A stretch of DNA of 63,169 nucleotides, the filler included, from Reclinomonas americana ATCC 50394 (Eukaryota): the NCBI GenBank assembly GCA_048213135.1. It is 6 parts of 4 records of this genome, joined end to end, with 100 filler letters (N's around TTAATTAATTAA, not from the genome) between each part and the next. Parts side by side here need not be neighbours in the genome. Positions count along the whole stretch, not along the records: positions 1 to 25,719 come from PS015762.1; positions 25,820 to 28,269 come from AFZH01015450.1; 4 more parts are not named here. One strand, given 5' to 3'. The first letter of the stretch is position 1; each line of letters starts with the position of its first letter. The position numbers were made by a program, and so were the translations under genes. Below are positions 2,389 to 33,459 of the stretch, piece after piece. The notes beneath the pieces are model-generated. The model was not told the origin of the DNA and did no database searches. It saw only the letters and a program-made list of their open reading frames with translations.

Positions 2389-3111
2389 ATGGAAACCATC
2401 GTCATCACCGGAGCCGCCGGGGGAATCGGCATCGAGACCGTCACGAAACTGGCCCGGTCTGGGCGCCAGTTGCTCTGCGCCGACGTCTCCGAGGTGGCCC
2501 TCGATCGGCTGCGCGAGCCGGCTGAAAAGCTCGATGGAACCGTCACACTGGCGGTCTGTCGCTTCGAGAGCCCCGATGACACCCGCGCATTTCTCCAGTG
2601 CGCGCACGGCCGCGTCGTCGGCCTAGTGCATCTCGCCGGGGTGTTTGAGCGCGATCCGGACGGGATCGACGACATGTCGGTCTACGACCGCGCGATCGCA
2701 GCCAACCTTACCAGCGCTTACCTGATTGCTCATGCCGCTTTCGAGGCGCGCGATCGGACGCGGATCATGAGCCAGGTCTTCATCTCTTCGTCCGCCTTTC
2801 GGCGCGGCGCTCCCGAGCACACACCCTACGGCATCGCCAAGGCGGGGCTGGTCGGATTGGTGCGCGGCCTCGGGCGGCGCTTTGCGCCACATGCCCGCGT
2901 CAATGCGCTCGCACCTTGTGTGATCGACACCGCCATGCCGGCTGAGGTCATTGCTCGCCGAGGCGAGGAAGCGGTCGCAGCCGAGATTCCGCTGGGGCGG
3001 ATTGGGCGTGCGGACGAAGTCGCTGCGGTCGCGGCCTTCCTGTTGAGCGAAGAAGCGTCCTTCGTCTCCTGCCAGACCATCAATGTCGACGGTGGCCTGA
3101 TCCCCTCATGA
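2389..3111 (+). CDS. SDR-family oxidoreductase (FabG-like)
   Basis: TGAAGGIG, HLAG, YGIAK, RVNALAP, IPLGRIG, NVDGG. Confidence 0.9.
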   Translation: METIVITGAAGGIGIETVTKLARSGRQLLCADVSEVALDRLREPAEKLDGTVTLAVCRFESPDDTRAFLQCAHGRVVGLVHLAGVFERDPDGIDDMSVYDRAIAANLTSAYLIAHAAFEARDRTRIMSQVFISSSAFRRGAPEHTPYGIAKAGLVGLVRGLGRRFAPHARVNALAPCVIDTAMPAEVIARRGEEAVAAEIPLGRIGRADEVAAVAAFLLSEEASFVSCQTINVDGGLIPS

Positions 3112-3137
3112 GACCTTAGCAGTCTGAGAGAGGACGA

Positions 3138-3172
3138 TTTTGGTCAAACCATTTACTAAAAGGTTTGACCAA
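3138..3172. promoter_or_regulatory. Two putative FadR-type operators upstream of the solute-binding protein gene
   Basis: TGGTCAAACCA (3141-3151) and AGGTTTGACCA (3161-3171), 20 bp apart in an AT-rich spacer. Confidence 0.6.
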
Positions 3173-3288
3173 ATACCCTATTTCTCGCAAGCTCGCCTCG
3201 GAGCGGCAATTGCCGGTCCAAAGCTGCCGACAGTGCAGCGTCAACAAGCGAACAAAATCGAAGATTCGCGCTCTTTGGGAGGAGCACA

Positions 3289-4521
3289 ATGAAGTCGGAT
3301 TTGGCAGCGCCTATCAGCCTCAGTCGCCGCGCAGTCGTCGCCGGCGCGTTGTCGGCACCCTTCCTCGCCAAGAGCGCTGCGGCGCAAGGTAGATCATTTC
3401 GCATCGGAGCCCTCAGCGACATGTCCGGCATGGTCGTCGACCTGTCTGGACCTGGCACGCTGACGAGCATGCGGATGGCGGTCGAGGATTTCGGCGGAAC
3501 CGTTCTTGGCCTGCCCATCGAAATCGTCCAGGGCGACCATCTCAACAAGCCCGATACCGGCATCAGCCTGGCGCGGCGCTGGTATGACGATGGTGTCAAC
3601 GCGATCTTCGACGTCGGCATCACCAGCGTCGCCTTGGGCGTTCAGGAACTCGCCAAGGACAAGAACAAGGCTGTAATCTTCATCTCCTCGTCGAGCGCCG
3701 ATCTGACCGGCAAGAAGTGCGGACCCAATGGCATCCATTGGAACCACAACAGCCACAGCCAAGCCATCGGCGTGGTCAAGGCCGCGATCAAGGCTGGCGG
3801 CGACAGCTGGTTTTTTCTGACTGTCGACTACGCTTATGGCCACACTGTCCAGAACGACACGACCGCGATGATACAGGCGGCCGGGGGCAAGGTCGTCGGA
3901 TCGGCCAAGCACGGCTTCGAAACCACCGACTTCTCTTCCGATCTGCTAAAGGCTCAGACCTCTGGCGCGAAGGTAGTCGCCTTGGCGACGACGAGCGTAC
4001 ATGTTCCCAATGTCGTCAAGCAGGCTGACGAGTTCGGCCTCCGGCCAAAGCAGATGCTCGCGCCGCTGAGCATGACCTTGCACGACGTCAAGGCGATGGG
4101 ACTGCAGACAGCGCAAGGGCTGCTGGAAACTTCGACCTACTACTGGGACCAGAACGACGAATCCCGCGCCTTCGCCCAGCGCTTCTTCGAGCGCTTCAAG
4201 CGCATGCCGAACATGATCCAGGCCAGCGCCTATGGCGCGACGCTGCATTATCTCAACGCGGTCAAGGCGGTTGGACGTGAGGACACCGGCGCGATCATCG
4301 CTCATATGAAGGCGACGCCGGTCAACGATTTCATGTCGAAGAATACCCGCATCCGTGCCGACGGCCAGGTGATGCGCGACCAGATCATCCTTCAGGTCAA
4401 GACACCAAGCGAGTCGAAGGGCGAGTGGGATCTTTACAGGGTCGTCGGCAGCCTACCGGCGGCCGAATCCTTCGCGCCGGCCGATCCCGCCGTCTGCTCG
4501 CTGGTGAAGTCGGCCGGCTGA
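3289..4521 (+). CDS. ABC transporter substrate-binding protein, branched-chain amino acid/aromatic acid type (PBP1)
   Basis: Tat-like signal SRRAVV..AAAQ; IGALSDMSG, DHLNKPD, WFFLTVDYAYG, IRADGQV; GGAG RBS. Confidence 0.9.
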   Translation: MKSDLAAPISLSRRAVVAGALSAPFLAKSAAAQGRSFRIGALSDMSGMVVDLSGPGTLTSMRMAVEDFGGTVLGLPIEIVQGDHLNKPDTGISLARRWYDDGVNAIFDVGITSVALGVQELAKDKNKAVIFISSSSADLTGKKCGPNGIHWNHNSHSQAIGVVKAAIKAGGDSWFFLTVDYAYGHTVQNDTTAMIQAAGGKVVGSAKHGFETTDFSSDLLKAQTSGAKVVALATTSVHVPNVVKQADEFGLRPKQMLAPLSMTLHDVKAMGLQTAQGLLETSTYYWDQNDESRAFAQRFFERFKRMPNMIQASAYGATLHYLNAVKAVGREDTGAIIAHMKATPVNDFMSKNTRIRADGQVMRDQIILQVKTPSESKGEWDLYRVVGSLPAAESFAPADPAVCSLVKSAG

Positions 4522-6763: not shown

Positions 6764-8806
6764 CTAGCCGCCCGCTACCGGCGGATATGACATCGGGCTC
6801 GGGATTCTCGAATCTGAAAGCACTGCCCGTTTCAAAGGCGTGAGGTCTCGCTGTCCGATCAACGCCGACGTGCCTTCAACGCCTAGTCCAAGTGTGAACC
6901 GAAATGCGGAGCCAGGCGCTCCGACGGGCATACGTCGACACAATAGATCGGCGAGTGCCGCATCCTCCACGGCGACGATTACCTGGCGGTCGGACGCGAC
7001 AAGCTGGGCCAACACCTCAGCGAGATTGACGGTCCTAAAATCGTCGACGTGTTGGACGGGGTCATCGAGCAAAATGGTCCGCCACCGGCTCCAGGCAAGC
7101 GAGAGGTTGATCGACAACAAAAATGCCAGGCCAGTTGCGCGACGCTGGCCGCTGGAAAACAGGAACTGCGGGTTTAGGCCCTCTCCGACCTGAAGCGAGA
7201 GGAAGCGCTTTACGTCCCCGCGGATCGAGTACTCGATGTCCTGCCAAAAAGGGTGAGGACGGAGGCGACCATAGAGTTCCGCCATGAGCGGCAGGACCCG
7301 CTGCAGCCGCAGATCGAGCGTCTCGCCAGCTGCGCGCCGAGCGGCGTCGTGAAGCGCAGCGGCCGTCACTTCTGATTGCCTTGATCGAGCCGCCCTTTCT
7401 TGAGCCCGGAGCAGCCGCTGGCGGGCTTCATCGAGCGTACTCGTTGCGCGCTCCAGTTGCGCGTTTTGCGTCAGGGTGCCGAGGATGCGGACGGAGTGTC
7501 GCGCTGCGTCGAGGTCAATTCGGCGCATATCGACCAGGTGCGAAAACTGTTCTCGCGAACCTTCGGCTGGGAAGTTCAGCTCTTTCAGCAAAGTCAGGCG
7601 CCATTCCTCGCGCTTCTGGAAGTTCTCGACATCGGCTTTAAGACGGGCGAGTTCCTCCTCCTTCGCAGCGATTGCGGCATCAGCGTTCTGAATGGCCTCC
7701 TTTCGACGCGCGGCTTCGGCCGCGACCGCGTTGAGCCGCTCCATTATCTCTCTCGATCGGCTCTTCCCTTCCGCCAAACTCACCGCATCGTGCCGGGCAG
7801 CGCATAGGGGGCAGCCACCGTCGAGTGGACCAAGTTCATCGCCGATCTGATGGAGGCGATGAAGATCCTGGACGAGCTCGACGAGCACCCCCGAAGCGGC
7901 TTCCTCGGCTGGCAGCGCGTGCCGCTCTTCGCGAGCCTGCAAGATGTCTCCAGCCTGTTTCTCGATCTGTATTGAGACCTCAACGAGAAGCCCAGCAAAC
8001 ATGGCCGTCTCGTCCCAGCGCTCAAGCAGAGTCTCGGCTTCAGCAAGCTCACGTTCCACCCGCACGACAAACTCTCGCCCGGCCGCGGCCAGCTGATCGG
8101 GAGCTGCGGGCATTCCATCCACGAGTTCAGAGAGCCGTGACGATGCCGCGGCAACAGCGGCATCGGGGGTCAGCTCAGCCCGGGCCTCGTCGAGCCTGCG
8201 CTGTGCGTCCGCGACAGCGGTTGTCGCCGAAATGACTTCAGCCTTTGCTTCATCCGATCTGCGCTTCGCTGTTCGGACGAGCGAATGCCCCTTGTCAGTC
8301 CAGATCTCAGCGTCACCTGCCCCGATCGCCTGCCGCAGCAGGGCATAGCGATCCGTCTCTGACAGGTCGAGGCTAAGAGCAGCAATAAACTCGTCGCGGA
8401 TGATGGAAGACGCGCAAAGCTGTTTGAGAGGCGACGGCGGAGCAGCCTCCGCGTGAATCATAGCTGCTTGAACGGATGCAAGTGTCTGAGGCGCGGGGTC
8501 GTCTATGGGGGTACGACGTATCGTGATCGGCCCATCTTCGGTAACGAATGTCACCTCAACAAACCGTGCAGATGGGGCGGGCCCGTCGCCCTTCCACCAA
8601 AGATAGTCTTCGACCGTCTGACCTGCTGCTTTGCTATCGCCGTACTTCGTCAGCCGCCCGATCAACGCAAATTCGACCGCGTCGAAGATCGTGCTCTTGC
8701 CTACGCCGTTCCGACCATCGATCACGTTGAAGCCAGGAGCAAGCTGTATTCGAGTTTCATCGCGAAAGCCTCGGAAGCCTGCAATGGTGATCTCAGCAAG
8801 CTTCAT
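6764..8806 (-). CDS. SMC/Rad50-like ABC ATPase (Lamassu LmuB / ABC-3C type)
   Basis: GFRGF start, Walker A GRNGVGKST, long coiled coil with central CPLC, signature FSSGQ, Walker B LLDDP; ATGA overlap with upstream gene. Confidence 0.85.
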   Translation of the reverse strand: MKLAEITIAGFRGFRDETRIQLAPGFNVIDGRNGVGKSTIFDAVEFALIGRLTKYGDSKAAGQTVEDYLWWKGDGPAPSARFVEVTFVTEDGPITIRRTPIDDPAPQTLASVQAAMIHAEAAPPSPLKQLCASSIIRDEFIAALSLDLSETDRYALLRQAIGAGDAEIWTDKGHSLVRTAKRRSDEAKAEVISATTAVADAQRRLDEARAELTPDAAVAAASSRLSELVDGMPAAPDQLAAAGREFVVRVERELAEAETLLERWDETAMFAGLLVEVSIQIEKQAGDILQAREERHALPAEEAASGVLVELVQDLHRLHQIGDELGPLDGGCPLCAARHDAVSLAEGKSRSREIMERLNAVAAEAARRKEAIQNADAAIAAKEEELARLKADVENFQKREEWRLTLLKELNFPAEGSREQFSHLVDMRRIDLDAARHSVRILGTLTQNAQLERATSTLDEARQRLLRAQERAARSRQSEVTAAALHDAARRAAGETLDLRLQRVLPLMAELYGRLRPHPFWQDIEYSIRGDVKRFLSLQVGEGLNPQFLFSSGQRRATGLAFLLSINLSLAWSRWRTILLDDPVQHVDDFRTVNLAEVLAQLVASDRQVIVAVEDAALADLLCRRMPVGAPGSAFRFTLGLGVEGTSALIGQRDLTPLKRAVLSDSRIPSPMSYPPVAGG

Positions 8807-9357
8807 ACGTCGTCCTCCACAATCTGCAGTACGACGGACTCATCAGCGTGCGATAAGAAGGCGCGCACGACCTCGGAACTCACTTCGCCTGCACGCCCTC
8901 TTATTTCCGACGGCATGTCTATGGGTTCAAGGACAGGCGCCGCGCGAAATGGCAGCAGCGGAAGCAGCGCGGCTCTCGCGGTCGCAAGACCATTGACGCC
9001 AGCTCGCGCGATCTTCCGCGTGCCTTCGAGATTTTCCTCAATTTGACCAAGCGCCAGGGCGTCCCCAAATCCCGCGCCATCTCCAGCGAGAAACACGAGG
9101 TACGTATTCCAGGCCTTTGGCCCGGCCGCTCCAAGCACTTGTGCCTGCGAGCGCATCAATGCGTCCGATGCCGCTCGCCAGTTCAAGATGAGAGACGCAA
9201 CGGAGTCGTAGGCAAGCACGAACCCGATAACAGTGTCGTTCTCGAACGCCAGCGCGCCCTTTGTTGACCCGACAACGTCGAAGCTTGCGGGCAATTGGCG
9301 TACCGAAAAGGCGGCGTCGGTGAGAACCACGCGCGTGGTTTCAATGATGTCGTTCAA
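8803..9357 (-). CDS. Small protein resembling ABC-three-component middle component (LmuC-like)
   Basis: WNTYLVFL...IEENLEGTRKIAR recalls the MC1-type WNxYL...IExD...RK pattern; TTG at 9357 overlaps the SIR2 stop (TTGA) and its stop overlaps the ATPase start. Confidence 0.65.
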   Translation of the reverse strand: MNDIIETTRVVLTDAAFSVRQLPASFDVVGSTKGALAFENDTVIGFVLAYDSVASLILNWRAASDALMRSQAQVLGAAGPKAWNTYLVFLAGDGAGFGDALALGQIEENLEGTRKIARAGVNGLATARAALLPLLPFRAAPVLEPIDMPSEIRGRAGEVSSEVVRAFLSHADESVVLQIVEDDV

Positions 9358-17212: not shown

Positions 17213-18138
17213 ACGAGGCAACGCTCACCAGAACGCTCACGGGCGTCCCGATCATCCTGCTGCTGCTGGTNNNNNNNNNNNNNNNNNNNNCCGACTCACC
17301 AGAACGCTCCACGGGCGTCCCGCTCATCCTGCTGCTGCTGGTCTTTTTCGTCCTTCCCCTCAGCATGGTGCTTGTGCTCGCCTTCAGGCCCTTCGACGCG
17401 CAGGCGATCGTCGGAGCGAGTTGGACCTTGGGGAATTTCCGGCGCTTCCTGCTCGATAGCAGCTACCTGCTGACTCTCTGGAGGACCGTCTGGATATCTC
17501 TCGCGATCACGGTCCTGACCATCGTATTCGGCTATCCCATCGCGTGGCATCTCAACGGGCTTAAATCCAGGAGCGCACGGCTTTGGCTGACGCTCATCGT
17601 CCTGCTGCCGCTGATGACCAGTCTTGTCGTCTCGTCTTTTGCCTGGGTGTTCATCCTCGGCAACAACGGTGTGGTTAGCCATGCCTTGCAATGGCTGAAG
17701 CTCCTTGATCGACCGACCGGCTTCCTCAACACCACGACCGGGGTCATCATCGTCAGCACCTATAGTTACATATCCTTCTCCATCCTCGCGATCTTCGCGA
17801 CCTTGCAGACGATCAACCAAGGCTTCGCCCGTGCTGCGGCCGTGCATGGCGCCAGCCCCTTTCAGACCTTTGTTCGCGTTGTCCTGCCCTTGAGCATCCC
17901 CGGGATCGTTTCCGGCGCGCTTATCGTCTTCGCCTTGTCCATGGCCGGTTTCGTAGTGCCGTTCCTGATAGGCGGCGGCCGCGTATCGGTGATTCCGCTG
18001 CTTATCTTCCAATTTACGCTTCAGCTCTTCGATTGGCCGGGTGCGGCCGCTCTCGGCGTCATTCTTTTCGTTCTCACTCTCGGCCTCACCTGGGCGATCT
18101 CGACCGCCGCCCAGCGCTTGACCCCATGGGAGCGGTGA
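17209..18138 (+). CDS. ABC transporter permease (PotB-like); short N gap with duplicated flanks
   Basis: Multiple TM segments, AAAVHGAS (EAA-loop-like), LPLSIPGI. Confidence 0.88.
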   Translation: MNEATLTRTLTGVPIILLLLXXXXXXXXDSPERSTGVPLILLLLVFFVLPLSMVLVLAFRPFDAQAIVGASWTLGNFRRFLLDSSYLLTLWRTVWISLAITVLTIVFGYPIAWHLNGLKSRSARLWLTLIVLLPLMTSLVVSSFAWVFILGNNGVVSHALQWLKLLDRPTGFLNTTTGVIIVSTYSYISFSILAIFATLQTINQGFARAAAVHGASPFQTFVRVVLPLSIPGIVSGALIVFALSMAGFVVPFLIGGGRVSVIPLLIFQFTLQLFDWPGAAALGVILFVLTLGLTWAISTAAQRLTPWER

Positions 18139-19783: not shown

Positions 19784-20994
19784 CCGAGCCCCGTCGGAGA
19801 CTATCAGCGCTGGCGCGCAGCATATCGCCGTCGCCCACCCTGGCGATGAACAAACGGTCGAGCGAAGCCGGCACCGCGAGCCGGCCGGTCATTCCGATGA
19901 GCCTGGGCGAGCCGGACTTCCACACGCCCGCCCTAGTCAAGGCGGCGGGCATCAGAGCGATCGAGCAGAATTTTACGAAGTACACTGCCGCCGACGGCAC
20001 ATCCGACCTCAAGGGCGCAATTCTCGAAAAGCTCCGACGCGAGAACGGTATTTCGGCGCATGCAAATCAGATCGTTGTTGCCGGCGGCGCCAAGGTCGCG
20101 ACCTTCGCCGCGCTTCAGTGCATTCTGGATCCCGGCGACGAGGTCATTATCCCCGCGCCCTACTGGCCTTCGTACATCGATCTCGTCAAACTCGCCGGCG
20201 GCACGCCGGTCATCGTCCCAACCAGAGAGGCATCGGGCTTCAAGCTGACCACGGCCGAGCTGAACGGTGTTCTCGGCCCCCGAACACGCGCGCTCATTCT
20301 GAACTCGCCGTCAAATCCGAGCGGTGCCGTTTACGACCAGGACGAGTTGCGGGGCATTGCTGAAGCCATCGCCGATCACGAGAAGATCTGGGTCATCGCC
20401 GACGAGCTCTACGAGCATCTGTACTACACTCCTATGAAGCCGGTCTCGTTCGCTGCAGCCGCGCCCGCGATCTCGGACCGCACGATCACCGTCAACGGCT
20501 TCTCGAAAGGCTACTGCATGACTGGCTGGCGGCTTGCCTTCGCCGTTGGCCCCCAGGACGTAATGGCTGCGATCTCCAATGTCGTCGGTCAAATCCAGGG
20601 AAGTTCCAGCAGCATAGCCCAGGCTGCCGGTGTCGTGGCGCTCAGCGGGGGCGATGATAGCCTGGAGACCAATCGGCAGAACTTCCGCGAACGGCGCGAT
20701 CTCCTGGTGTCCGGTCTAAATGCGATAGCCGGCCTCTCCGTTAGGGCTCCGGAGGGGGCCTTCTATGTCTATGCCAACTGTGCAGAGCTGATCGGCCGCA
20801 GCACCGCTGCCGGCCAACATATTGCGTCGGACGTGGCGTTGGCGGACATCTTGCTAACCGAAGCCGCCGTTTCATCGGTGGCCGGGAGCGCGTTTGGGCT
20901 CAGCCCGTATTTGCGGCTTTCATACGCTTTGGATACCGCAAAGATCGCTATGGGGATCGAGCGGATCGACGAGTTTTGCGGCAGTCTCATTTAG
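19780..20994 (+). CDS. PLP-dependent aminotransferase class I (aspartate aminotransferase-like)
   Basis: GEPDF, NSPSNPSG, DELY, NGFSKGYCMTGWRL, PEGAFY, YLRLSYA. Confidence 0.93.
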   Translation: MTEPRRRLSALARSISPSPTLAMNKRSSEAGTASRPVIPMSLGEPDFHTPALVKAAGIRAIEQNFTKYTAADGTSDLKGAILEKLRRENGISAHANQIVVAGGAKVATFAALQCILDPGDEVIIPAPYWPSYIDLVKLAGGTPVIVPTREASGFKLTTAELNGVLGPRTRALILNSPSNPSGAVYDQDELRGIAEAIADHEKIWVIADELYEHLYYTPMKPVSFAAAAPAISDRTITVNGFSKGYCMTGWRLAFAVGPQDVMAAISNVVGQIQGSSSSIAQAAGVVALSGGDDSLETNRQNFRERRDLLVSGLNAIAGLSVRAPEGAFYVYANCAELIGRSTAAGQHIASDVALADILLTEAAVSSVAGSAFGLSPYLRLSYALDTAKIAMGIERIDEFCGSLI

Positions 20995-21101
20995 GCGGTT
21001 GTGCCGATCAACTCCTTGACGATCAATGAGGTGTTGCGCCGGGCGCGATTGGGCTGCCTAGAAAATCCTGATCTGCTGGCGGCATTCAGGAATGCAGCTA
21101 G

Positions 21102-21312
21102 AGGAAAATCGTTGCCCTGGGCCTCGGCGCCGCCAGCGCCCATGCCGGAAACGTTCTGGTTGTTCTTTCCGACTCCGATAAGCTCGACCTCAAGGACGGC
21201 AAGGTCTGCAGGACCGGCTTCTACCTCAATGAATTGATGCAGCCGGTGAAGATGCTGATCGACGCCGGTCACGAGGTGACTTTCGCCACCCCGCAGGGCA
21301 ATGCGCCAGCTG
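21102..21312 (+). pseudogene. Fragment of a secreted DJ-1/PfpI (Hsp31-like) gene
   Basis: After an in-frame TAG (21099) the frame reads ALGLGAASAHA-GNVLVVLSDSDKLDLKDGKVCRTGFYLNELMQPVKMLIDAGHEVTFATPQGNAP, then loses similarity; no start codon upstream of the signal-peptide remnant. Confidence 0.75.
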
Positions 21313-21380
21313 CCATCGTTCCCTGGCCCGTCAACATAGTTATTCGATTCACTTGCGGCACACGCCAGTGCGGTAGAACG

Positions 21381-23471
21381 TTATGTCGCCAGGACCTCGG
21401 GCTTGCCATTCCCACCAATATCTTCTCGCGGCGGATGGCGAAACCGCGCGGCCGCGCTGAGACTGGTTATCGAAGGCGACGATGCGGAACCATCCTTCTT
21501 GCTTCCCCGTTTGCGGCTGGCCTTGCGCGCGTCCGAAGCGCGCTTCTCTGCAGCTTTGGTTGCGTCGCTTGGACTGATGCGTCGCGCCGGCACGCGAACG
21601 ATGAGCACGCCGCGACTGATGCCGTCTTGCAGTAAATCCCCGACCACAGGCTTGAAGCGCGTTCTGATATCTCCCGAAATCCCGTCCCGGGTCGTCAGAT
21701 CCAGAACCAGCAGAATCCCGATCGGAATGTTTGTGATCTGATAGAGCGCAGTTTGCTCGCCGTAGGATGCGAGCAGATTGTCGAACGACGCGTCGTATGC
21801 CTCACGCTTCACTTCAGTAACGAACCGGCTTCCCTTGTATGTGTGGGAAACGTCGGCGCGACCACCGCCAATCCCCGATAATTCAGCGACTGTTCCTAGC
21901 TTCCGGCTTCGCAGGAAACGGATGAAGTCTTGCTGCAGCTCCTTTTCGAGCGGATCGCGCTCGCCGTCCGCGATGAACAAATACTTCACTGTCGGGTCGA
22001 TCCCAGGTGTCATGTCCAACCGCCCTTCGAGAAAGAGCAGGGTCTGGTAGATCATCGCTTCGACGAGGATTTTTGTCTGAGGAACGTCAGCGACCTCAGG
22101 GATTGCCATGAAGGCTTCCACCACGGTGGCGACCGCCTCGACGATGGTCGGGCTCAGATTCTCCTTCTCGACCAGACCGACGTTCGTGACAACGGCATTG
22201 GTGATCCTCTCCCTGTCCGCGTATGATAGTGCGCCCGAGCTAAGGATGGCGGCGACCCCCGGGCTTGTGGGTGCCGCCTCACTAGGGCGGGCAGGAGCGT
22301 CGATCAGCGCAGCATCGGTTCGGGCGATCAGATCCTTCGCGGTAACTCCGAGTTCCCCCTCGCCATTGGCCTCGAGCCAATCCCGTAGAACGTAGAGTTG
22401 AGCTCGGTTCGCGGCGACGGAAGCCTCGATACGTGGGCGGACCAGCCATTCCAGCCCGCCGTCGATCGAGCGCCGGAAAATTGAGCGACTCGCCGAGTAA
22501 ATGGTGAGCAACTCGGTCTCGATGATTCGGACTGCGTCGAGCCACGCCGGCTTCTGTAGCGCATCGCTGAGCGTCTCCAAGCGCACCGCAAGCGAGGCCC
22601 AAGCCGCGACCTGAACCGACTTGGCCCCGGTAAGGAGATCGCTTTCGAAAGCGGAGTATGCCGAATAGGCGAACGCCTCGCGCTGGAGGGGCTCGCTACG
22701 CTCTGCGTCACGTATCCCCCGGTTGTCATAGAAATCGTCGAGCGTCCCAATGGCAAGCGCGAGAACGTGTGCGTCTGACCGCGTTTCCCGTCGCGTATAA
22801 GCGGTTTCAAAGTGCGTTTGGGCGAGGCGAAAGTGCCCTCGCGCCTCACCGGCGCTTTGGGCGGCGAATGCCAGCCCGACCTCGCTCATTCCGAGCTCGA
22901 ACGCTGCCTCGTCCGCAGCAGCGTCGCGGTCCAACAAGGCTTGAAGAAACGCGACAATGCCTAGGTTGGGAGATTCCGCATGCAAATATCCGCCGATCCG
23001 CGCGGCATGGGAAAGATAGGCGGGATCGTCGTCGACGTCGGTGATTGCAATGTCGCCGGTTAGCCGTGCGGCCCGGCGGGGGTCCTGGCGCTTCATCAGG
23101 AGCGCCCCACGCAGCGCGGCTGTTCTCAAACTCGCGGGGTTATCGCGCTCCTTTGCGATGTCGAGCCAATTCAGGAAGCATCGCTGTTCGAGCGGCTCTG
23201 GCAGGGGCGCGCGAACCAATAGCGCGTCGACCAAAAGGTTGACGGCGATGTCCTGTCGAACGCGCGTGAGGACATCGGCCACAAATCCGGCCACCGCTTC
23301 GTCCTCTCGACGACCCTCATCCATAACGAGCGCCACGAATTCTGGCGCGAACGGAGAGGTCGCTACGATCTCAGGCTCGTTCAAAATAGCGAGCAGGCCA
23401 CCAAAGTCTGCGACTGCCGGCTGGCGGCCTGCTGCCAGGACCGTCTCCATCTCACGCAGCAGCAGGTGCAT
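21381..23471 (-). CDS. Large helical protein with C-terminal PD-(D/E)XK restriction-endonuclease-like domain (putative defence effector)
   Basis: EKELQQD...E..GIGGGRADV...VTEVKR...QTALYQ...GILLVLD; Ala/Leu-rich helical N-terminal ~500 aa; ATG 4 bp after the ATPase stop. Confidence 0.7.
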   Translation of the reverse strand: MHLLLREMETVLAAGRQPAVADFGGLLAILNEPEIVATSPFAPEFVALVMDEGRREDEAVAGFVADVLTRVRQDIAVNLLVDALLVRAPLPEPLEQRCFLNWLDIAKERDNPASLRTAALRGALLMKRQDPRRAARLTGDIAITDVDDDPAYLSHAARIGGYLHAESPNLGIVAFLQALLDRDAAADEAAFELGMSEVGLAFAAQSAGEARGHFRLAQTHFETAYTRRETRSDAHVLALAIGTLDDFYDNRGIRDAERSEPLQREAFAYSAYSAFESDLLTGAKSVQVAAWASLAVRLETLSDALQKPAWLDAVRIIETELLTIYSASRSIFRRSIDGGLEWLVRPRIEASVAANRAQLYVLRDWLEANGEGELGVTAKDLIARTDAALIDAPARPSEAAPTSPGVAAILSSGALSYADRERITNAVVTNVGLVEKENLSPTIVEAVATVVEAFMAIPEVADVPQTKILVEAMIYQTLLFLEGRLDMTPGIDPTVKYLFIADGERDPLEKELQQDFIRFLRSRKLGTVAELSGIGGGRADVSHTYKGSRFVTEVKREAYDASFDNLLASYGEQTALYQITNIPIGILLVLDLTTRDGISGDIRTRFKPVVGDLLQDGISRGVLIVRVPARRISPSDATKAAEKRASDARKASRKRGSKKDGSASSPSITSLSAAARFRHPPREDIGGNGKPEVLAT

Positions 23472-23475
23472 GGGC

Positions 23476-25422
23476 TCACCAGAGATAATCATCTCCGGCA
23501 GCGTACCTCAGGTTCTTGCTAGGCACATGCTGACGGACAACGTCGCTGTCGATGGCCGCCATAAACACCTGAGTATGCGGAATATCGCCAGTCAGTTGCT
23601 TCAGGCCGGCAACGAGAGCCGCGTAGTCCTTTTCGACCATCTCGGCAGCGCCGGGCGAATCGATCAGCAGCAGTCCGGGATGCCGTCCAATTCCGCGCTG
23701 TTCGGCGATTTTAATCAGCGCCAACGTCGTCGCGATCTTGAGCCTGGCCTTCTCGCCGGCCGTCTGTTTGCCGAAGGATACCGTTACCGCACCTTTCACG
23801 AGATCGAGATGCGTGTTCCCCTTCAATTTTGCCCCTTGCAGGCTCTCCATTCCGAACAAAACGGCGTAGTGCTTGATCAGCGCGGAAACATCACGCAGGA
23901 GGGCGTCCTGGAGCGATCTGTAGCTCGCCGAGATGACTTCCTCAGCGATCTTGAGCAGATCCTCATCATCGGTTGGGCCGGATGATGGCCCCTCATCACG
24001 AGCCAGTTCATCACGCTGTGCCTCGCGTTTGATGATATCAAGTTCCAAATCCCGTGCTTTCGACGGCGCGGCGAGCTGCGCCTCGATCTCGATTGATGCC
24101 TCCTCCGCCTTTTTCCTGTCGGCGCGGGCTGTGGAGACACTCTCCTGCAACGAATGCTGACGTCGCCGCTCTGCTTCCAGCACCCCCTCCGCACCAACCA
24201 CCGCCGCTTTGAGACCCGACTCCGTTATCGCCGGGTTGTCATCATCAGTTTCCGGCTCCCCGCAGACCACGCAGACATGTTGTTCCCGGCTATCGTGCTT
24301 GCGCTGGTCTCCGAAGTCGTGAACGCATCTCGGGCAGGACACCGGCTCAAGCGAGCGGAAAACGAAACTAGCAGCGCGGCCGTCTTTGAAGTCCTGGAGA
24401 TCCCGGCGAGCTGCGTCATAGGCTTCTTTGGCAGCATCAAGATCGTCGGACGACGCGCCCACTTGAAAGAGCCCTGTCCGAAGTTTCGCATCGGCGTCGG
24501 CAAACTCGCGACTCAACTTTTCTAGTGATGCCCGTAAATCACTGGTGCGCGGCAGCTCTCGCAATTGGCGCTGTAGACCTGCGAGCTCCTCGTCGAGCTC
24601 GGCTACGCGTGCCTTTCGGCGGGCTCGCGAGCGGTCAAGGTCGCTTGCAGCCTGTCGATTCTCGCTCGTGATACGCGATAGCGCTGCGCGTACGTCACTC
24701 ACGGCGTTGATCCAGGGCACTCCCAAATACATCTGCATCATGCGGATGCCGAGCGTCGGTGCGGAACCGAAAAGCGTTTTCGGATCTGGCTCGATAACCA
24801 TTGCTCCAGAGAGCCAAACCCAGTCGTGCTCCTGGTCGCTACCTTTTCCGTCTCGGATGGCATGCATGACCATGGACTGGAGTCCCAACTGGCCCATAAA
24901 AAATTCGGACATGACGTCCTCGAACTCTGCCTCGGACGCGAACGCCGCCTGACGCTGGCGCTCTCCCCCTCCAAGTCGCCAGAGCGATCCCGAACAGGCA
25001 ATGGCGTCAGCTATGTCGACCTCATAGAGCTGCTCATCCAATGTGAATGTAAGACGGACCGTGTGAAACCAAGTCTCCATTCCACCCGGAATGTCACCAG
25101 TGCGCCGGCCGTTGAGACACCACCGGATCATGGCGAGCAGAGTGGACTTGCCACGAAAATTGCGCTCGCTCGTGATCGCGAGAAATCCTTGGTCCAGGTC
25201 CTTCCACTCGAAATTGATCGGGCCGGCCTGCTCGCCCTTTTTCTCGCCGGTAAAGGCGAGTGAACGGATACAAAGACGTCGTGGCACGGCAATCGACGGC
25301 CTTATCGCGACGCCATGACGGCCTAGAACCGCCCGGACCTCCTCGGATGATCGCTTCGCCTTTTCCGCAATGGCGTCAATAAGGGCTCCAGGCGTCTTCT
25401 GAGCTAATTCCTCGGACATCAT
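23476..25422 (-). CDS. Atypical SMC/Rad50-like ABC ATPase
   Basis: Walker A-like SERNFRGKST, coiled coils, apex CPRC-x17-CVVC, signature-like QTAGEK, Walker B LLLIDSPG; ATGA overlap with upstream gene. Confidence 0.8.
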   Translation of the reverse strand: MMSEELAQKTPGALIDAIAEKAKRSSEEVRAVLGRHGVAIRPSIAVPRRLCIRSLAFTGEKKGEQAGPINFEWKDLDQGFLAITSERNFRGKSTLLAMIRWCLNGRRTGDIPGGMETWFHTVRLTFTLDEQLYEVDIADAIACSGSLWRLGGGERQRQAAFASEAEFEDVMSEFFMGQLGLQSMVMHAIRDGKGSDQEHDWVWLSGAMVIEPDPKTLFGSAPTLGIRMMQMYLGVPWINAVSDVRAALSRITSENRQAASDLDRSRARRKARVAELDEELAGLQRQLRELPRTSDLRASLEKLSREFADADAKLRTGLFQVGASSDDLDAAKEAYDAARRDLQDFKDGRAASFVFRSLEPVSCPRCVHDFGDQRKHDSREQHVCVVCGEPETDDDNPAITESGLKAAVVGAEGVLEAERRRQHSLQESVSTARADRKKAEEASIEIEAQLAAPSKARDLELDIIKREAQRDELARDEGPSSGPTDDEDLLKIAEEVISASYRSLQDALLRDVSALIKHYAVLFGMESLQGAKLKGNTHLDLVKGAVTVSFGKQTAGEKARLKIATTLALIKIAEQRGIGRHPGLLLIDSPGAAEMVEKDYAALVAGLKQLTGDIPHTQVFMAAIDSDVVRQHVPSKNLRYAAGDDYLW

Positions 25423-26162
25423 GCGCTCTCAAGAAGACGCTGAAGCCGCTTGCGAACGCGCTCAGCTGTGGTTGGGATGAGGTCGCCAATCTGGGCGTCG
25501 TGATATTCTTTTTGTTCGTGCTGGCGCCTCTTGAGAGGAAAGCCGCCTCGCCCGCCGGCGACTTTGAGCACCAGATCGACGCGCCTGTCATACCAGTCCA
25601 GTCCGGGTACGTCGGTCGCTATTCGCGCGACCAAGTCCCGTGCCAGGGGGCCGACGAGAAACTCATGTTCGTCTTTGCCGCTCTCCATCTTGCGCGATCG
25701 AGGTAGGACTAACAGGCTGNNNNNNNNNNNNNNNNNNNNNNNNNNNNNNNNNNNNNNNNNNNNTTAATTAATTAANNNNNNNNNNNNNNNNNNNNNNNNN
25801 NNNNNNNNNNNNNNNNNNNCTAATTCGCGACTTCGGAGAATGCCGAGAACGGTGTCCAAAGGCTCGTAGGCCCCGAAATATCGACGGAGCATCGGTACCC
25901 GCCGGAGATCCGGTTCCTCGTCAGCGAAGATACGTTCCGCTTCATTGAGGAAATCCGGTTTCCCAGTCTGCTCGAAGAGGGATAAGAGCTCGTCCGCGAG
26001 GTAGTCGGGGTTCCGTATCCAGAAATCCAGTGCTTGGAGCCGCGTTTCACCCTTGAACACGTTATCGAAGCCAGGAACGAGTTCTGCGCCAGCAGGCGCG
26101 CTCCCTTTCACGAGGATGAACAGGATGCGGAGAGCATTCCGTTGATAGTCGACCTTAGGCAT
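25419..26162 (-). CDS. Small hypothetical protein upstream of the SMC ATPase (middle-component-like), split by a contig linker
   Basis: 5' part MPKVDY...LQALDFWIRNPDYLADEL...PMLRRYFGAYEPLD...LRSREL and 3' part LVLPRSRKMESG...LLESA join in frame through a shared TTAG at the contig ends. Confidence 0.7.
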
Positions 26163-26330
26163 CGCAAGGAGGCGCAAATCCGAGAGAGAATATCGCGTTA
26201 CAGTTGTATCTATATTTCTCCTAAGTCGAACCGGCCAGTCTCCTTCGTCAGTCGGTTGCAAATTTTAAACAACGTCTTCTGCAGGCACTCATCGGGGCGG
26301 CTCCCGATCGAAGACGCGCGAAGCAATGAA

Positions 26331-26351
26331 CCTTAGACCAAGGGTCTAAGG
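26331..26351. repeat. Perfect 9-bp inverted repeat
   Basis: CCTTAGACC-AAG-GGTCTAAGG. Confidence 0.8.
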
Positions 26352-26667
26352 CTCCACCATGACCGATTTGGTCTGCCAGACGGCCTGGGGACTGCGCCAC
26401 GCGTCGTAGCCGGTGACCCGAGGGGTCGCAAGGTCAAACATCGGCTCGTGTTTCGCAGTCGGAATAATGATGACTATGAGAGGACGAAGTCCGATCAATG
26501 GTGACTTTTTGTCGGATCTTCTTTGAATTCAGGCTTCCTAAGTGATTGATCTGACTGGCGCCAGAGTTGCGCTATTCGTGAATTCCAAGAATTCACCCTT
26601 CGGGGTGTTCCATCCCCTTGAACTTCAACGTCGACAAGCCCTTTGGGCGGGTTGCACCCCGTCCGAA

Positions 26668-26689
26668 TGCATAACATCGTGCATAACAT
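26668..26689 (+). repeat. 10-bp direct repeat at the integrase start (candidate arm-type sites)
   Basis: TGCATAACAT at 26668-26677 and 26680-26689. Confidence 0.7.
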
Positions 26690-28269
26690 GGCTGACGACG
26701 ACGTGCCTGTTGCGAACCATCTCACCACCCGGAACGGCGTGTGCCAGTACGTGCGCCGCGTGCCCGAGGACCTGCTCGGCGCGTTTGCGTTCGCGCGCGT
26801 CCAGCTGTCTCTGAAGACGCGCGATCAGCGCATTGCCCGCGAGAAGGCGCTCGCGCTGGATCTGGAATGGGACCGCCGCTTCGCCGAGGCCCGTCAGCGG
26901 CGCGGGCTGGCCAGCGCCGCCGACCAGTTGCCGTCCACCGACACGTCCAGCTGGAGCTGGGAGGATTGGGACGCGCTCGCCCGCTGGTTCGGCGCAAGCC
27001 TGTTGGAGGACGACTGGCGCGAGCGCCTTCGACAGGTCAGGGGAGCCGCCTTCGCGGCGGTGCCCGACATCTCCGACCTGCCGCGGCGGAGCAATGCCGA
27101 CGTGAAGGAGCATTTCGCACGGGAACGACGCCTGCGCACGATGACGATCGCCGACTATGCGGCAGAGCGATTGGGCTTCGTCCAGGCTTATGTCCGCCGG
27201 CTCGGCGTCTCGCTGTCCAGGACCTCGCAGCATCACGACCGCTTCATGGCCTCGTGCCTCGAAGCCGAGCTGTCCTATCTCGATGTCTTCCGCCAGCGGG
27301 AGAGCCGCCTGGGCGGCATCGGCACCGCTCATCCCGATACGATCGCCGGCCCGTGGCGTAAGACGGTTCCGGCGCAGTCCGGATTACCGGCGCTCCATGT
27401 CGTTCCCGGCGCTCCGGGCGCTTCGATCACGGTGGGCAAGACCCTCGCCGATTGCGCTACCAAATGGCAGGAGAACCGACGCCTCGCGAAGAAGCAGGTC
27501 AGGCCGGAATATCTGCGGGAGATGAAGCACACCATCTCCGACTTCATCGCGCATGCCAAAGTCAAGGATATCGGCGAGATCAAGCGCAAGCACGTGCTCG
27601 CCTACCGCGATCATCTCGGCTCGGCGCACGACTATGCGATCCAGACCATCAACAAGAAGGTCGGGTTCATCTCCTCGCTGATGGCGACGGCCTTGAACGC
27701 GGGATGGGTCGAGACGCCGCTCGGCAAGGAGATCTATCTGGAAATCCCCGAGGACGAGGACCGTCGCGAGCCCTACAGCGATGCCGAGCTCAAGCGCATC
27801 TTCGCCCACCCGATCTTCACGCAGGGCAAGCGGTTCACAAAGGTCAAGGCCTGCGCGGAACTGCAGTTCTGGCTGCCGCTGATCGCCTGCCTGCACGGGA
27901 TGATCAGTTCCGAGATCATCCAGCTTGGCCCCGATAGCATCATGCCTCACCCCGATGCTCCGGATGTCCTCTGCTTCGTGGTGACCAATGCGGGAGACCG
28001 CCGCGTCAAGACCCTGGCCCGCCGCCGCTGGGTTCCGATCCGGCGCGAACTTCTCGACCTCGGCCTGCGCGATCTCATCGAGGCGGCCCGTACCGGTGGG
28101 CAGACGTTCCTGTGGTCGGCGATGGTGACGCACGACAACGACGTCACGCGCGTATCGGGATACTTCTCGTCATTCTGGGCCGACTTTTCCCGCAAGGATC
28201 TGGAGATCGCAAGCGAGGGTACGACGCTCTACTCGTTCCGACATGCCTTCCAGGATCAACTCAGCCGGG
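26688..28269 (+). CDS. Tyrosine recombinase/integrase with DUF6538-like N-terminus, cut by contig end
   Basis: HLTTRNGVCQYVRRVPEDL..LSLKTRD; TINKK; REPYSDAEL; WLPLIACLHGM..EIIQL; VKT..RRWVPI; YSFRH. Confidence 0.85.
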
Positions 28270-30286: not shown

Positions 30287-30517
30287 ATGATTAACAAAGA
30301 GCAAGTCCGCGCAGCTCGTGTTTGGCTTGGACTCAGCCAAAAGGAACTGGCCGAGCTGGCCATGGTCGCTCAGGGAACCATTGCGTCTCTGGAGACGGGC
30401 AGCCGCATTCCGCACGATCGAACGCTGCGCGATATCCAGCATGCACTCGAAAGCCGCGGTATCGTCTTCATGTTCGATAACGGGCGGGGAATCGGCCTCC
30501 ACATCCGCTCCTCCTAA
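30287..30517 (+). CDS. XRE-family HTH regulator
   Basis: QVRAARVWLGLSQKELAELAMVAQGTIASLETG...IQHALESRGIVF. Confidence 0.9.
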   Translation: MINKEQVRAARVWLGLSQKELAELAMVAQGTIASLETGSRIPHDRTLRDIQHALESRGIVFMFDNGRGIGLHIRSS

Positions 30518-31637: not shown

Positions 31638-33459
31638 ATGACGTCCGACGATATCCCGCCGAACTCCGAACCCACCGATCCGCGTCGCACGAGCATCCTC
31701 GCCTCTCTCGCGCAGCCTCGTCGCGCGGCTGATGATCAGGAGACCCCGGTCGAGGCCGGGGCTGACGACGAAACGGTCTGGCGCCTAGAAGCCGATCGTC
31801 CCGAAGCGGCGGATGAAGGGCTCGACCAGAACGACAGCAGCCGCAGCTCGGGTAGCCCGGCGAACGGCGTGGCGGCCGGCCGCGCCGTGCAGTCCGCCTA
31901 CAATCCCGTCGAGCTCATCGTCGAGCTGGCCTTTGACGAGCAGGCCCGCGCTGATCGGCTGGACCTGCGCAAGATGCCGTCCGGCAGGACGCTGGTGATA
32001 GTCGTTCGGGTTCCGACCGAAGCCTGGGAGCAGCCGCTCGCCAGGCTGATCGAGAGCATCGATGGGCATCTCGCAATCCATACCGGCAGGAATGAGGTCA
32101 AGGCCCGGGACGGCGTGGGCCGGGACATCATCCGGGATCTGCAGGCAGGGCGCACCATCATCGGCATCGCCGCCGATCCCGATCAGCGCCTGCCGGCTCT
32201 CCTGCGCGGCGCGGCCGATCTCCGGATGACCATCAAGAGCCCGACGCCCGTCCTGATGCGCAAGGCCATCCGGCGCTGGACCGGTCGCTCGGCGCCGGCG
32301 ATCTCGGGAGCGGATGTCGCGGGGCTCGATCTGCCCGAGCTCGGTCTCGCCCTTCGCCGCGGTAGTTCGGCACGCGTTTGCGTCGAACGGCTGAAGCGTG
32401 CATCGGCGGCGACCACCGTGACCAGCTCCGCCGACGAGACCCCGCCGCTTGCGGAACTGACCGGCTATGGCGAGGCCAGGGCTTGGGCGCTCGATCTCGT
32501 CGAGGATGTGCGCCGCATGCGCGCCGGGCTGGTCCCGCCGGGTCAGTTGGAGAGCGCGATCTTCTACGGGCCGCCCGGCACCGGCAAGACCACCCTGGCC
32601 CGTGCGGTGGCAAAGGCCGCGGGATTGCCGATCGTGACGACCAGCATCGCGGACTGGTTCAAGGCGGGACCCGGTTATCTCGACAGCGTCATCAAGGCGG
32701 CGTCCGCCGTCTTCGACCGGGCGCTCGCCTGTGCCCCCTCGGTGCTGTTCATCGACGAGCTCGATGCGCTGCCCGACCGGGCGAAGATCTCGCAAAGGGG
32801 AGCGGACTGGTGGCTGCCGGTCATCACCAGCGTGCTGCTCCGGATCGATCAGGTCCGTGCCGACAAGAGCGGGGTGGTTCTTCTCGGCGCGACCAATCAT
32901 GTCGACCGTGTCGATGCCGCGATCCGGCGCCCCGGCCGCTTCGATCGGTCGTTCCTGATCCCGCCGCCCGACGCGGAGGGTTTCGCCGGCATCCTGCGCC
33001 TCCATCTCGGTGCCGAACTGCCCGGCATCGACCTGCTGCCGCTGGCGCGTCAGGTTCCGGGTTCGACCGGAGCGGACGCCGTGCAATGGATCAAGCAGGC
33101 CCGTCGCAAGGCACTCACCGCGGGTCGAGCGATCACCCTGGAGGATCTGCGCGCCGTCATGATGCCGCGGGACACGCGCTCGCCGCGAGAGCTGAGTCTG
33201 ATCGCCCTGCACGAAGCCGGCCATGCCGTCGTCGCGCGGAGCCTGGGGATCGAGGTTCGCTCGGTCACGATCCAGGCGCGCGGGAATGCCGATGGCTGGG
33301 CGGAGCTGGTCATCGACCGGGCGCCGGATCGCGACCGTCTCGACAATCAGATCGTGGCGATCCTGGCTGGCCGCGCTGCCGATATCGTTCTGGGCGACGG
33401 CCCGAACGCCGGTGCCGTCAGCGATCTGGAGAAGGCCACCGAATGGGTCGCTGCCGCTC
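31638..33459 (+). CDS. Soluble FtsH-like AAA+ ATPase / M41 metallopeptidase, 3' end in gap
   Basis: GPPGTGKT, FIDELD, ATNHVDRVDAAIRRPGRFD, HEAGH, LAGRAA, GAVSDL; no TM segments. Confidence 0.88.

Follow-up and report, generated by a model that had tools for sequence, protein, structure and literature searches.

Whether a group of genes with unusual order and motifs represents a new kind of defence system, or an unfamiliar member of a known one, is a question that is raised by a locus in the genome assembly GCA_048213135.1 of Reclinomonas americana ATCC 50394. The stretch of DNA that was analysed, 63,169 nucleotides in length and hereafter called the window, carries three co-oriented genes on the minus strand, from position 26162 down to 21381, encoding products of 210, 648 and 696 amino acids. 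In the original prediction, made from the sequence alone, these genes were described as an atypical operon of an SMC-type ATPase and a nuclease beside an integrase, and were proposed to form a distinct DNA-sensing defence system. The analysis described here indicates that the trio is very probably a three-gene short Lamassu (ABC-3C type) anti-phage or anti-plasmid system, belonging to a subtype that is already catalogued and for which no experimental study was found. It is a new example of a known Lamassu subtype rather than a new kind of system, and its odd features are family-wide. The locus has been removed from the list of supposed new defence systems.

Identification of the three genes

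The genes are named here after the Lamassu components that they match, with the first of them, lmuC, interrupted by a join between contigs that is discussed further below.

25824..26162, minus strand: lmuC, N-terminal part, residues 1-113 (PADLOC LmuC model PDLC03872, E-value 2.4e-46, profile positions 6-121 of 220, and alignment to homologues of 210 residues)
25419..25712, minus strand: lmuC, C-terminal part (PADLOC PDLC03872, E-value 1.2e-25, profile positions 132-216 of 220)
23476..25422, minus strand: lmuB, a short SMC/Rad50-like ATPase of 648 residues (PADLOC LmuB model PDLC03864, E-value 5.1e-181)
21381..23471, minus strand: lmuA, 696 residues (PADLOC LmuA model PDLC03853, E-value 2.3e-156)

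The genes are tightly coupled. lmuC starts with the ATG at 26162, and its product includes LDFWIRNPDYLADEL and PMLRRYFGAYEPLD. Its stop codon overlaps the start codon of lmuB in the sequence ATGA (25422-25419), and lmuB terminates in TGA, followed by the four bases GCCC and the ATG of lmuA at 23471. An alternative in-frame ATG for lmuA is present further upstream at 23492 and would give a product of 703 residues. Upstream of lmuC, only a divergent integrase-like gene is found. The coupled operon that had been predicted, with its ATGA overlap, its gap of four base pairs and its products of about 210, 648 and about 696 residues, is thus present in the sequence, and no effector gene precedes the small gene, as had been claimed.

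The identity of the trio was established with the models of PADLOC-DB v2.0.0. LmuA matches PDLC03853 over profile positions 1-654 of 655, LmuB matches PDLC03864 with residues 10-648 on positions 4-657 of 657, and both halves of LmuC match PDLC03872. The likeness between the trio and these three models is full-length and no difference was detected. In addition, LmuB has weaker matches to three other LmuB models (E-values 3.7e-19 to 2e-12), and no Jet model of the Wadjet system is among the PADLOC matches of the trio at E<=0.1. The LmuA model PDLC03853 also recognizes four full-length relatives, from Methylobacterium and from metagenome-assembled genomes (MAGs) of SAR324 and Proteobacteria, with E-values of 1e-160 to 1e-166, and it has no match in 14 control genomes. 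The locus looked novel from sequence alone because Pfam and NCBIfam scans of the trio returned nothing useful and because all names seen in public records of LmuA relatives are 'hypothetical protein'. The full-length PADLOC models, which date from a 2023 database, match the trio, and the subtype is therefore already catalogued. The claim of a distinct defence system is therefore not supported, a known system having been matched in full.

Conservation and distribution of the trio

The trio was compared with 18 related loci, which were obtained by searching twice with aligned LmuA relatives: eight contigs from a one-genome-per-species collection and ten metagenome contigs. Two of these were left out, namely a locus with an N-terminal-only homologue of 480 residues (L008) and one in which the contig starts within lmuA (L025), leaving 16 informative loci. 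The order lmuC-lmuB-lmuA (C-B-A) on a single strand is present in 13 of the 16, and in the remaining three (L006, L007 and L020) lmuB-lmuA is present and the contig ends before lmuC. No other order was seen in the informative loci. This pattern is kept down to 30% LmuA identity, the flanks vary from locus to locus, and a homologue of the integrase-like gene is present in none of the 18 loci, placing this gene outside the conserved trio. The same three genes recur in the same order in related loci, and the arrangement is therefore not due to chance. The trio is thus conserved together, which is what the proposed conserved-neighbourhood search was to examine.

The LmuA family is large. When 1.84 billion cluster representatives (50% identity) were searched with a profile, 1002 were matched at E<=0.001, of which 414 reached E<=1e-30. 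Among the 150 LmuA matches listed, most are 600-700 residues long and are matched by the profile from end to end. Named members of the family come from Rhizobium and from MAGs of SAR324 and Phycisphaera, and the subtype is present in Alphaproteobacteria, SAR324 and Planctomycetota. When 401 genomes were sampled evenly from the class of a Methylobacterium carrier, the LmuA model was found in a single genome, which is the carrier itself. The subtype is populous as a family yet sparse among genomes. A collection of plasmids gave a single weak match, in Methylobacterium aquaticum (NZ_AP014705), with 64% identity over 52% of the query.

LmuB, a short Rad50-like ATPase with degenerate motifs

In LmuB, Walker A on the one hand and the signature and Walker B on the other are located at opposite ends of the protein, and the region between them has PDB matches to coiled coils only. 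The following motifs are present, and their conservation was judged on seven aligned sequences.

25141-25170, minus strand: Walker A, SERNFRGKST, residues 85-94
24262-24336, minus strand: two CxxC pairs at the coil apex, CPRC (residues 363-366) and CVVC (residues 384-387), with 17 residues between them
23752-23766, minus strand: signature, QTAGE, residues 553-557
23653-23673, minus strand: Walker B, LLLIDSP, residues 584-590

Within Walker A, the residues N88, R90, G91, K92 and T94 do not vary, and the same holds for G556-E557 of the signature and D588-S589-P590 of Walker B and the D-loop. The position of the first Walker A glycine is occupied by Glu in the window, by Asp in five sequences and by Gly in one of the seven. 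A histidine past the strand that follows Walker B, as expected for an H-loop, was not seen in LmuB. An N-terminal extension of about 50 residues is conserved and is included in the PADLOC model. All the ATPase motifs named in the original prediction are therefore present, including the lack of an obvious H-loop histidine. Because the Asp of Walker B is followed by Ser in place of the catalytic Glu and the H-loop histidine is missing, LmuB, whose Walker A lacks its first Gly, probably uses ATP binding for slow switching and not for fast cycling. The four apex cysteines, which are invariant in all seven sequences, probably bind one zinc ion.

LmuA, an alpha-solenoid followed by a nuclease-like domain

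The architecture of LmuA was derived from an AlphaFold model, built with 24 sequences in the input and having a mean predicted local distance difference test score (pLDDT) of 77.6, and from the conservation of residues. Two regions are distinguished, and the C-terminal end of the protein is a basic, disordered tail in the model.

22002-23471, minus strand: N-terminal alpha-solenoid, about residues 1-490 (AlphaFold model)
21552-21989, minus strand: C-terminal PD-(D/E)xK-type domain, about residues 495-640 (model and invariant residues)

The modelled alpha/beta domain consists of a helix (509-521), two strands (541-545 and 548-557), a second helix (563-576) and then three more strands. Invariance was judged on alignments of 24 and of 43 diverse LmuA sequences, with identity down to 23% in the latter. 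Across the 43 sequences 12 columns are invariant, ten of which lie within this domain. The invariant residues, in the numbering of the window protein, are E509, Q513, Glu 530, G537-R538-x-D540, E553-x-K555 and Q573-x3-Y577; in the first-row numbering of the 43-sequence alignment, the corresponding positions are E503, Q507, G531-R532-x-D534, E547-x-K549 and Q567-x3-Y571. In the model, helix 509-521 begins with E509, D540 immediately precedes the first strand, and E553-x-K555 lies in strand 548-557. The order of helices and strands modelled for this region agrees with the PD-(D/E)xK core. A Glu-bearing helix followed by D...(D/E)xK on core strands 2 and 3, which is the pattern of PD-(D/E)xK enzymes, is found in this domain. 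The addition of a QxxxY motif occurs in RecB/Cas4-like nucleases. On the basis of these residues and the model, we infer that the C-terminal domain is a putative nuclease of the PD-(D/E)xK type with a QxxxY motif. The domain has no Pfam match at E<=1 and no PDB profile match at E<=10. Among named Atlas clusters, those closest to it are DUF8371, DpnII-MboI, PDDEXK_3 and PDDEXK_9, with feature scores of 0.83-0.93 that serve as leads only.

Two observations on LmuA relatives can be added. On a contig of Tropicibacter sp. (L008, 6971-8413), a protein of 480 residues matches the LmuA solenoid only (PDLC03853 positions 3-433, E-value 1e-86). It is without the nuclease domain, an LmuB of the subtype was not found in that genome, and the gene adjoins divergent trypsin-endonuclease and alpha/beta-hydrolase genes. 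This protein may have been left behind as a remnant, or it may have been re-used as an adaptor. In a MAG locus (L005, 7001-8936), the LmuA homologue aligns in two pieces (7001-7138 and 7149-8936), which points to a frameshift in that assembly or to a small indel error there.

Comparison with described Lamassu systems

The trio resembles the short (type II) Lamassu/ABC-3C systems, such as Vibrio cholerae DdmABC (Lamassu Vc-Cap4) and Salmonella enterica LmuACB, in having three components: a small LmuC, a Rad50-like LmuB of about 600-650 residues in which the coiled coil is short, and an LmuA composed of an enzymatic and a non-catalytic domain. The same-strand genes are tightly coupled in both, both are mobile, island-borne cargo, and both share a Walker B of the type hhhhD followed by a residue other than Glu, with CxxC motifs at the apex being optional. 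In the available portions of PMC12663957, short Lamassu is characterized by an LmuB of about 600 residues, a Walker B of hhhhD[Q/S/T/E] and zero, one or two copies of CxxC. LmuB of the window agrees with this description, with 648 residues, LLLIDS and two CxxC pairs. The atypical order and motifs that had been pointed out are thus real; they are nevertheless family-wide, and the Asp-Ser of Walker B and the CxxC copy number are documented for short Lamassu in the same source.

Several features set the trio apart from described short Lamassu. The order is C-B-A instead of A-C-B, with LmuC still directly preceding LmuB. The nuclease-like domain is C-terminal in LmuA and of the PD-(D/E)xK/QxxxY type, unlike in Cap4-type short Lamassu, and the non-catalytic part is an alpha-solenoid of about 490 residues without detectable similarity to the other LmuA models of PADLOC. 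Furthermore, the first Walker A Gly is replaced in six of the seven aligned LmuB sequences, and the N-terminal extension of about 50 residues is a conserved addition. The effector has been placed at the N-terminus of LmuA (PMC12663957; Millman et al., 10.1101/2022.05.11.491447; PMC10586767, each as far as its text was available), and according to the accessible part of the review PMC10586767, the name "middle component" for LmuC reflects where it sits within the operon. The effector-middle-ATPase order is a descriptive habit of the Lamassu family and not a detection rule. Neither the C-B-A order nor a C-terminal LmuA nuclease is mentioned in the literature passages covered, from PMC12663957, Millman et al. 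and PMC10586767; this combination may so far be undescribed. The locus documents that, in one populous Lamassu subtype, the genes are permuted in order and the domains of LmuA are reversed.

A number of points weigh against the assignment to Lamassu as a defence system of this type. The subtype departs from the literature in the position of the effector, in LmuC as the middle gene and in Walker A, which is called prototypical for short Lamassu (PMC12663957, in the part available); the Gx4GK[S/T] pattern is not matched by LmuB of the window. A nuclease family match for LmuA was not found in Pfam or NCBIfam, and searches of PDB sequences and profiles with LmuB, LmuA and the nuclease domain gave no sequence match to any solved structure, their output being either empty or coiled-coil noise. 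When the LmuA model was used in fold searches (Foldseek and VIA-align), generic HEAT/ARM-like solenoids only were retrieved, with no Lamassu entry listed. The nuclease domain, when folded alone, gave a poor model with a pLDDT of 55, and its VIA-align hits had Z<=5.8, the nucleases among them being interspersed with unrelated folds; the comparisons of this domain-only model with McrC (Z 5.4) and Avs4 (Z 4.6) are not above background. Experimental work on the subtype was not found in the literature, and lmuC is not contiguous in the assembly, as the gene is split by a join of 100 base pairs.

A contig join inside lmuC

The last of these points bears on the state of the system in this strain. The window is a pseudo-molecule with five identical joins of 100 base pairs, consisting of N44-TTAATTAATTAA-N44, at 25720, 28270, 42534, 44315 and 49483. 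Eight further runs of N, of 20-964 bases, are present at 17271, 28527, 30568, 33460, 36961, 46662, 50596 and 56082. As contigs and scaffolds are concatenated in this way, gene neighbourhoods that span the linkers are not proven to be physical neighbours. Two features lie between the halves of lmuC.

25720..25819: linker of a contig join, N44-TTAATTAATTAA-N44, not biological sequence, one of the five identical linkers of the window
25713..25719: seven bases, CAGGCTG on the plus strand, foreign to lmuC, at the contig end (window sequence, homologue alignment and metagenome contigs)

When aligned to the homologues of 210 residues, the halves of lmuC abut without a missing residue, and the coding sequence on the two sides (25419-25712 and 25824-26162) has a total of 633 bases, equal to 210 codons and a stop. 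On the plus strand, the left contig ends with CTAA (25709-25712) followed by the seven bases that are not of lmuC, and the right contig starts with a duplicate of CTAA (25820-25823). Together, the duplication and the foreign bases have the appearance of an assembly artefact or of the border of a repeat that was inserted. Logan contigs from three metagenome runs (X1, X2 and X3) were compared with positions 24300-25719 of the window. In X1 and X2, which derive from two studies, one contig each agrees with the window up to 25712 with zero mismatches and then reads on as from 25824 onward. Because these contigs read through, an uninterrupted lmuC of identical sequence exists in nature. The zero-mismatch contigs over the compared pieces, with a depth of about 2-5, come from sludge and salt-pan metagenomes of two studies; therefore, the carrier organism or its element occurs in unrelated samples.

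The alternative that holds up best is a decayed Lamassu, in which a mobile element has been inserted in lmuC and the operon is present and inactive in this strain. This is a real possibility, though somewhat less probable than an uninterrupted gene. The join sits within the gene, and the CTAA at both contig edges resembles a target-site duplication of four base pairs at a repeat that broke the assembly. Elements of the IS5 family typically give rise to duplications of four base pairs, at YTAR targets. The X1 and X2 contigs, which are identical to the window over the compared pieces and run uninterrupted, also fit an insertion in this strain. On the other hand, the putative insert is represented by just seven bases, and an element end that matches was not found; the draft is poor, with its five joins and eight other gaps, so that a break due to low coverage with a junk contig end is equally possible; and lmuB and lmuA are intact. 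If lmuC were interrupted, the system would be disabled, and the possible break is a reason for caution against scoring the locus as a working system.

Proposed mechanism

If the genes form an intact short Lamassu, a working mode can be proposed by analogy with solved complexes. In the parts available of 10.1101/2025.03.14.643221 and PMC12663957, a mechanism of sequestration and tetramerisation is described for Lamassu, and in that of 10.1101/2022.05.11.491447, the LmuB ATPase, the effector and LmuC are all required and the phenotype is abortive. As in the solved Cap4-type complexes, two LmuB and one LmuC would keep a single LmuA inactive by sequestering its non-catalytic docking or oligomerisation domain. 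The LmuB heads, together with the short coiled coils, would sense the DNA ends of an invader or abnormal replication structures. LmuA would then be released, oligomerise and degrade DNA indiscriminately, leading to abortive infection. In the present subtype, the sequestered docking part would be the N-terminal alpha-solenoid of about 490 residues, and the effector would be the C-terminal PD-(D/E)xK domain with QxxxY. A complex prediction with the N-terminal 482 residues of LmuA and LmuC, both from the Methylobacterium dankookense locus (L002) and with alignments unused, gave no answer (score 0.00), and counts neither for nor against this arrangement.

The equivalence of the solenoid to the canonical C-terminal domain of LmuA is one that we infer, because neither a sequence nor a fold match to Lamassu structures was obtained. 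If the two are not equivalent, sequestration and release of the nuclease would use a different interface and geometry. It is conceivable, although rather unlikely, that the clade is such an 'inverted' Lamassu, with an effector module that was joined to the LmuBC sensor by independent assembly, and with an interface and geometry of sequestration other than those of the Cap4 type. For the question of how LmuB and LmuC restrain different effectors, the subtype is a useful comparison case.

Distinction from other SMC-ATPase systems

A distinct, uncatalogued SMC-ATPase/nuclease defence system, as first proposed, is now very improbable. The C-B-A order, the C-terminal nuclease, the long solenoid and the degenerate Walker A do differ from textbook Lamassu, and the empty Pfam and NCBIfam scans and the 'hypothetical protein' names of LmuA relatives would fit a new family. 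Against this stand the full-length PADLOC matches of LmuC, LmuB and LmuA, with E-values of 1e-25 to 1e-181, the additional matches of LmuB to three other LmuB subfamily models, and the same component logic, in which a small protein is combined with a short Rad50-like ATPase and with an effector that includes a non-catalytic domain. With Wadjet (JetABCD), the short Lamassu trio shares the coupling of an SMC-family ATPase to a nuclease in defence, whereas Wadjet consists of four genes with a kleisin/KITE pair and the Toprim nuclease JetD, and here only three genes are conserved.

SbcCD/Rad50-Mre11 has in common with the trio the Rad50-like split ABC head, the coiled coil and the cysteine hook, and differs in that the coils of the trio are much shorter, that each chain has two CxxC pairs instead of one, and that the ATPase motifs are degenerate. 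A housekeeping DNA repair module of this type is the least credible reading: LmuB is Rad50/SbcC-like, its PADLOC model also matches two of the 14 control genomes (Thermotoga maritima and Methanocaldococcus jannaschii), and a descent of Lamassu from SbcCD is argued in the accessible part of PMC12663957, but the trio is without an Mre11/SbcD phosphoesterase, its Walker B is without the catalytic Glu, its distribution is patchy and mobile (the LmuA model being found in only the query centre among the 401 genomes sampled from the class), and its flanks are variable, with an integrase-like gene adjoining it in the window.

Genes and sequences around the trio

The Lamassu-like trio is accompanied in the window by one neighbouring gene on the side of lmuC.

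26643..28269, plus strand: integrase-like gene, divergent, truncated by the contig end at 28269 (Pfam DUF6538, E-value 6.7e-13)

In this gene, Phage_int_SAM_4 was also matched (E-value 0.0016), under the curated cut-off of Pfam. The prediction of an SMC-type ATPase and nuclease defence operon beside an integrase is in this respect supported at the level of sequence. Scans of positions 20900-28269 for promoters and terminators gave nothing exceeding shuffled sequences, repeat scans of the same region did not find island-bounding repeats, and no tRNA gene was found in the window.

In three closely related Methylobacterium/Methylorubrum loci, a gene for a Tle1-like (DUF2235) alpha/beta-hydrolase is located directly upstream of lmuC on the same strand (L002, 2799-4286; L003 and L005, about 2806-4281). 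This gene was considered as a fourth component and rejected: a full copy is present in these three loci only, a remnant of 51 residues is found in a fourth (L004), and neither the window nor any of the remaining 14 of the 18 loci searched has the gene.

On the integrase side, a small regulator gene of the HTH_3 (Xre) type is located at 30287-30517 of the window, flanked by two N gaps. At 31638-33458, a few kilobases from the trio, a gene encoding an FtsH-like AAA protein with peptidase M41 is present. A gene of the same kind is also found near the trio in the M. dankookense locus (L002, 12478-14541), on the opposite side compared with the window, and the FtsH-like/M41 gene may be island cargo that is common to both.

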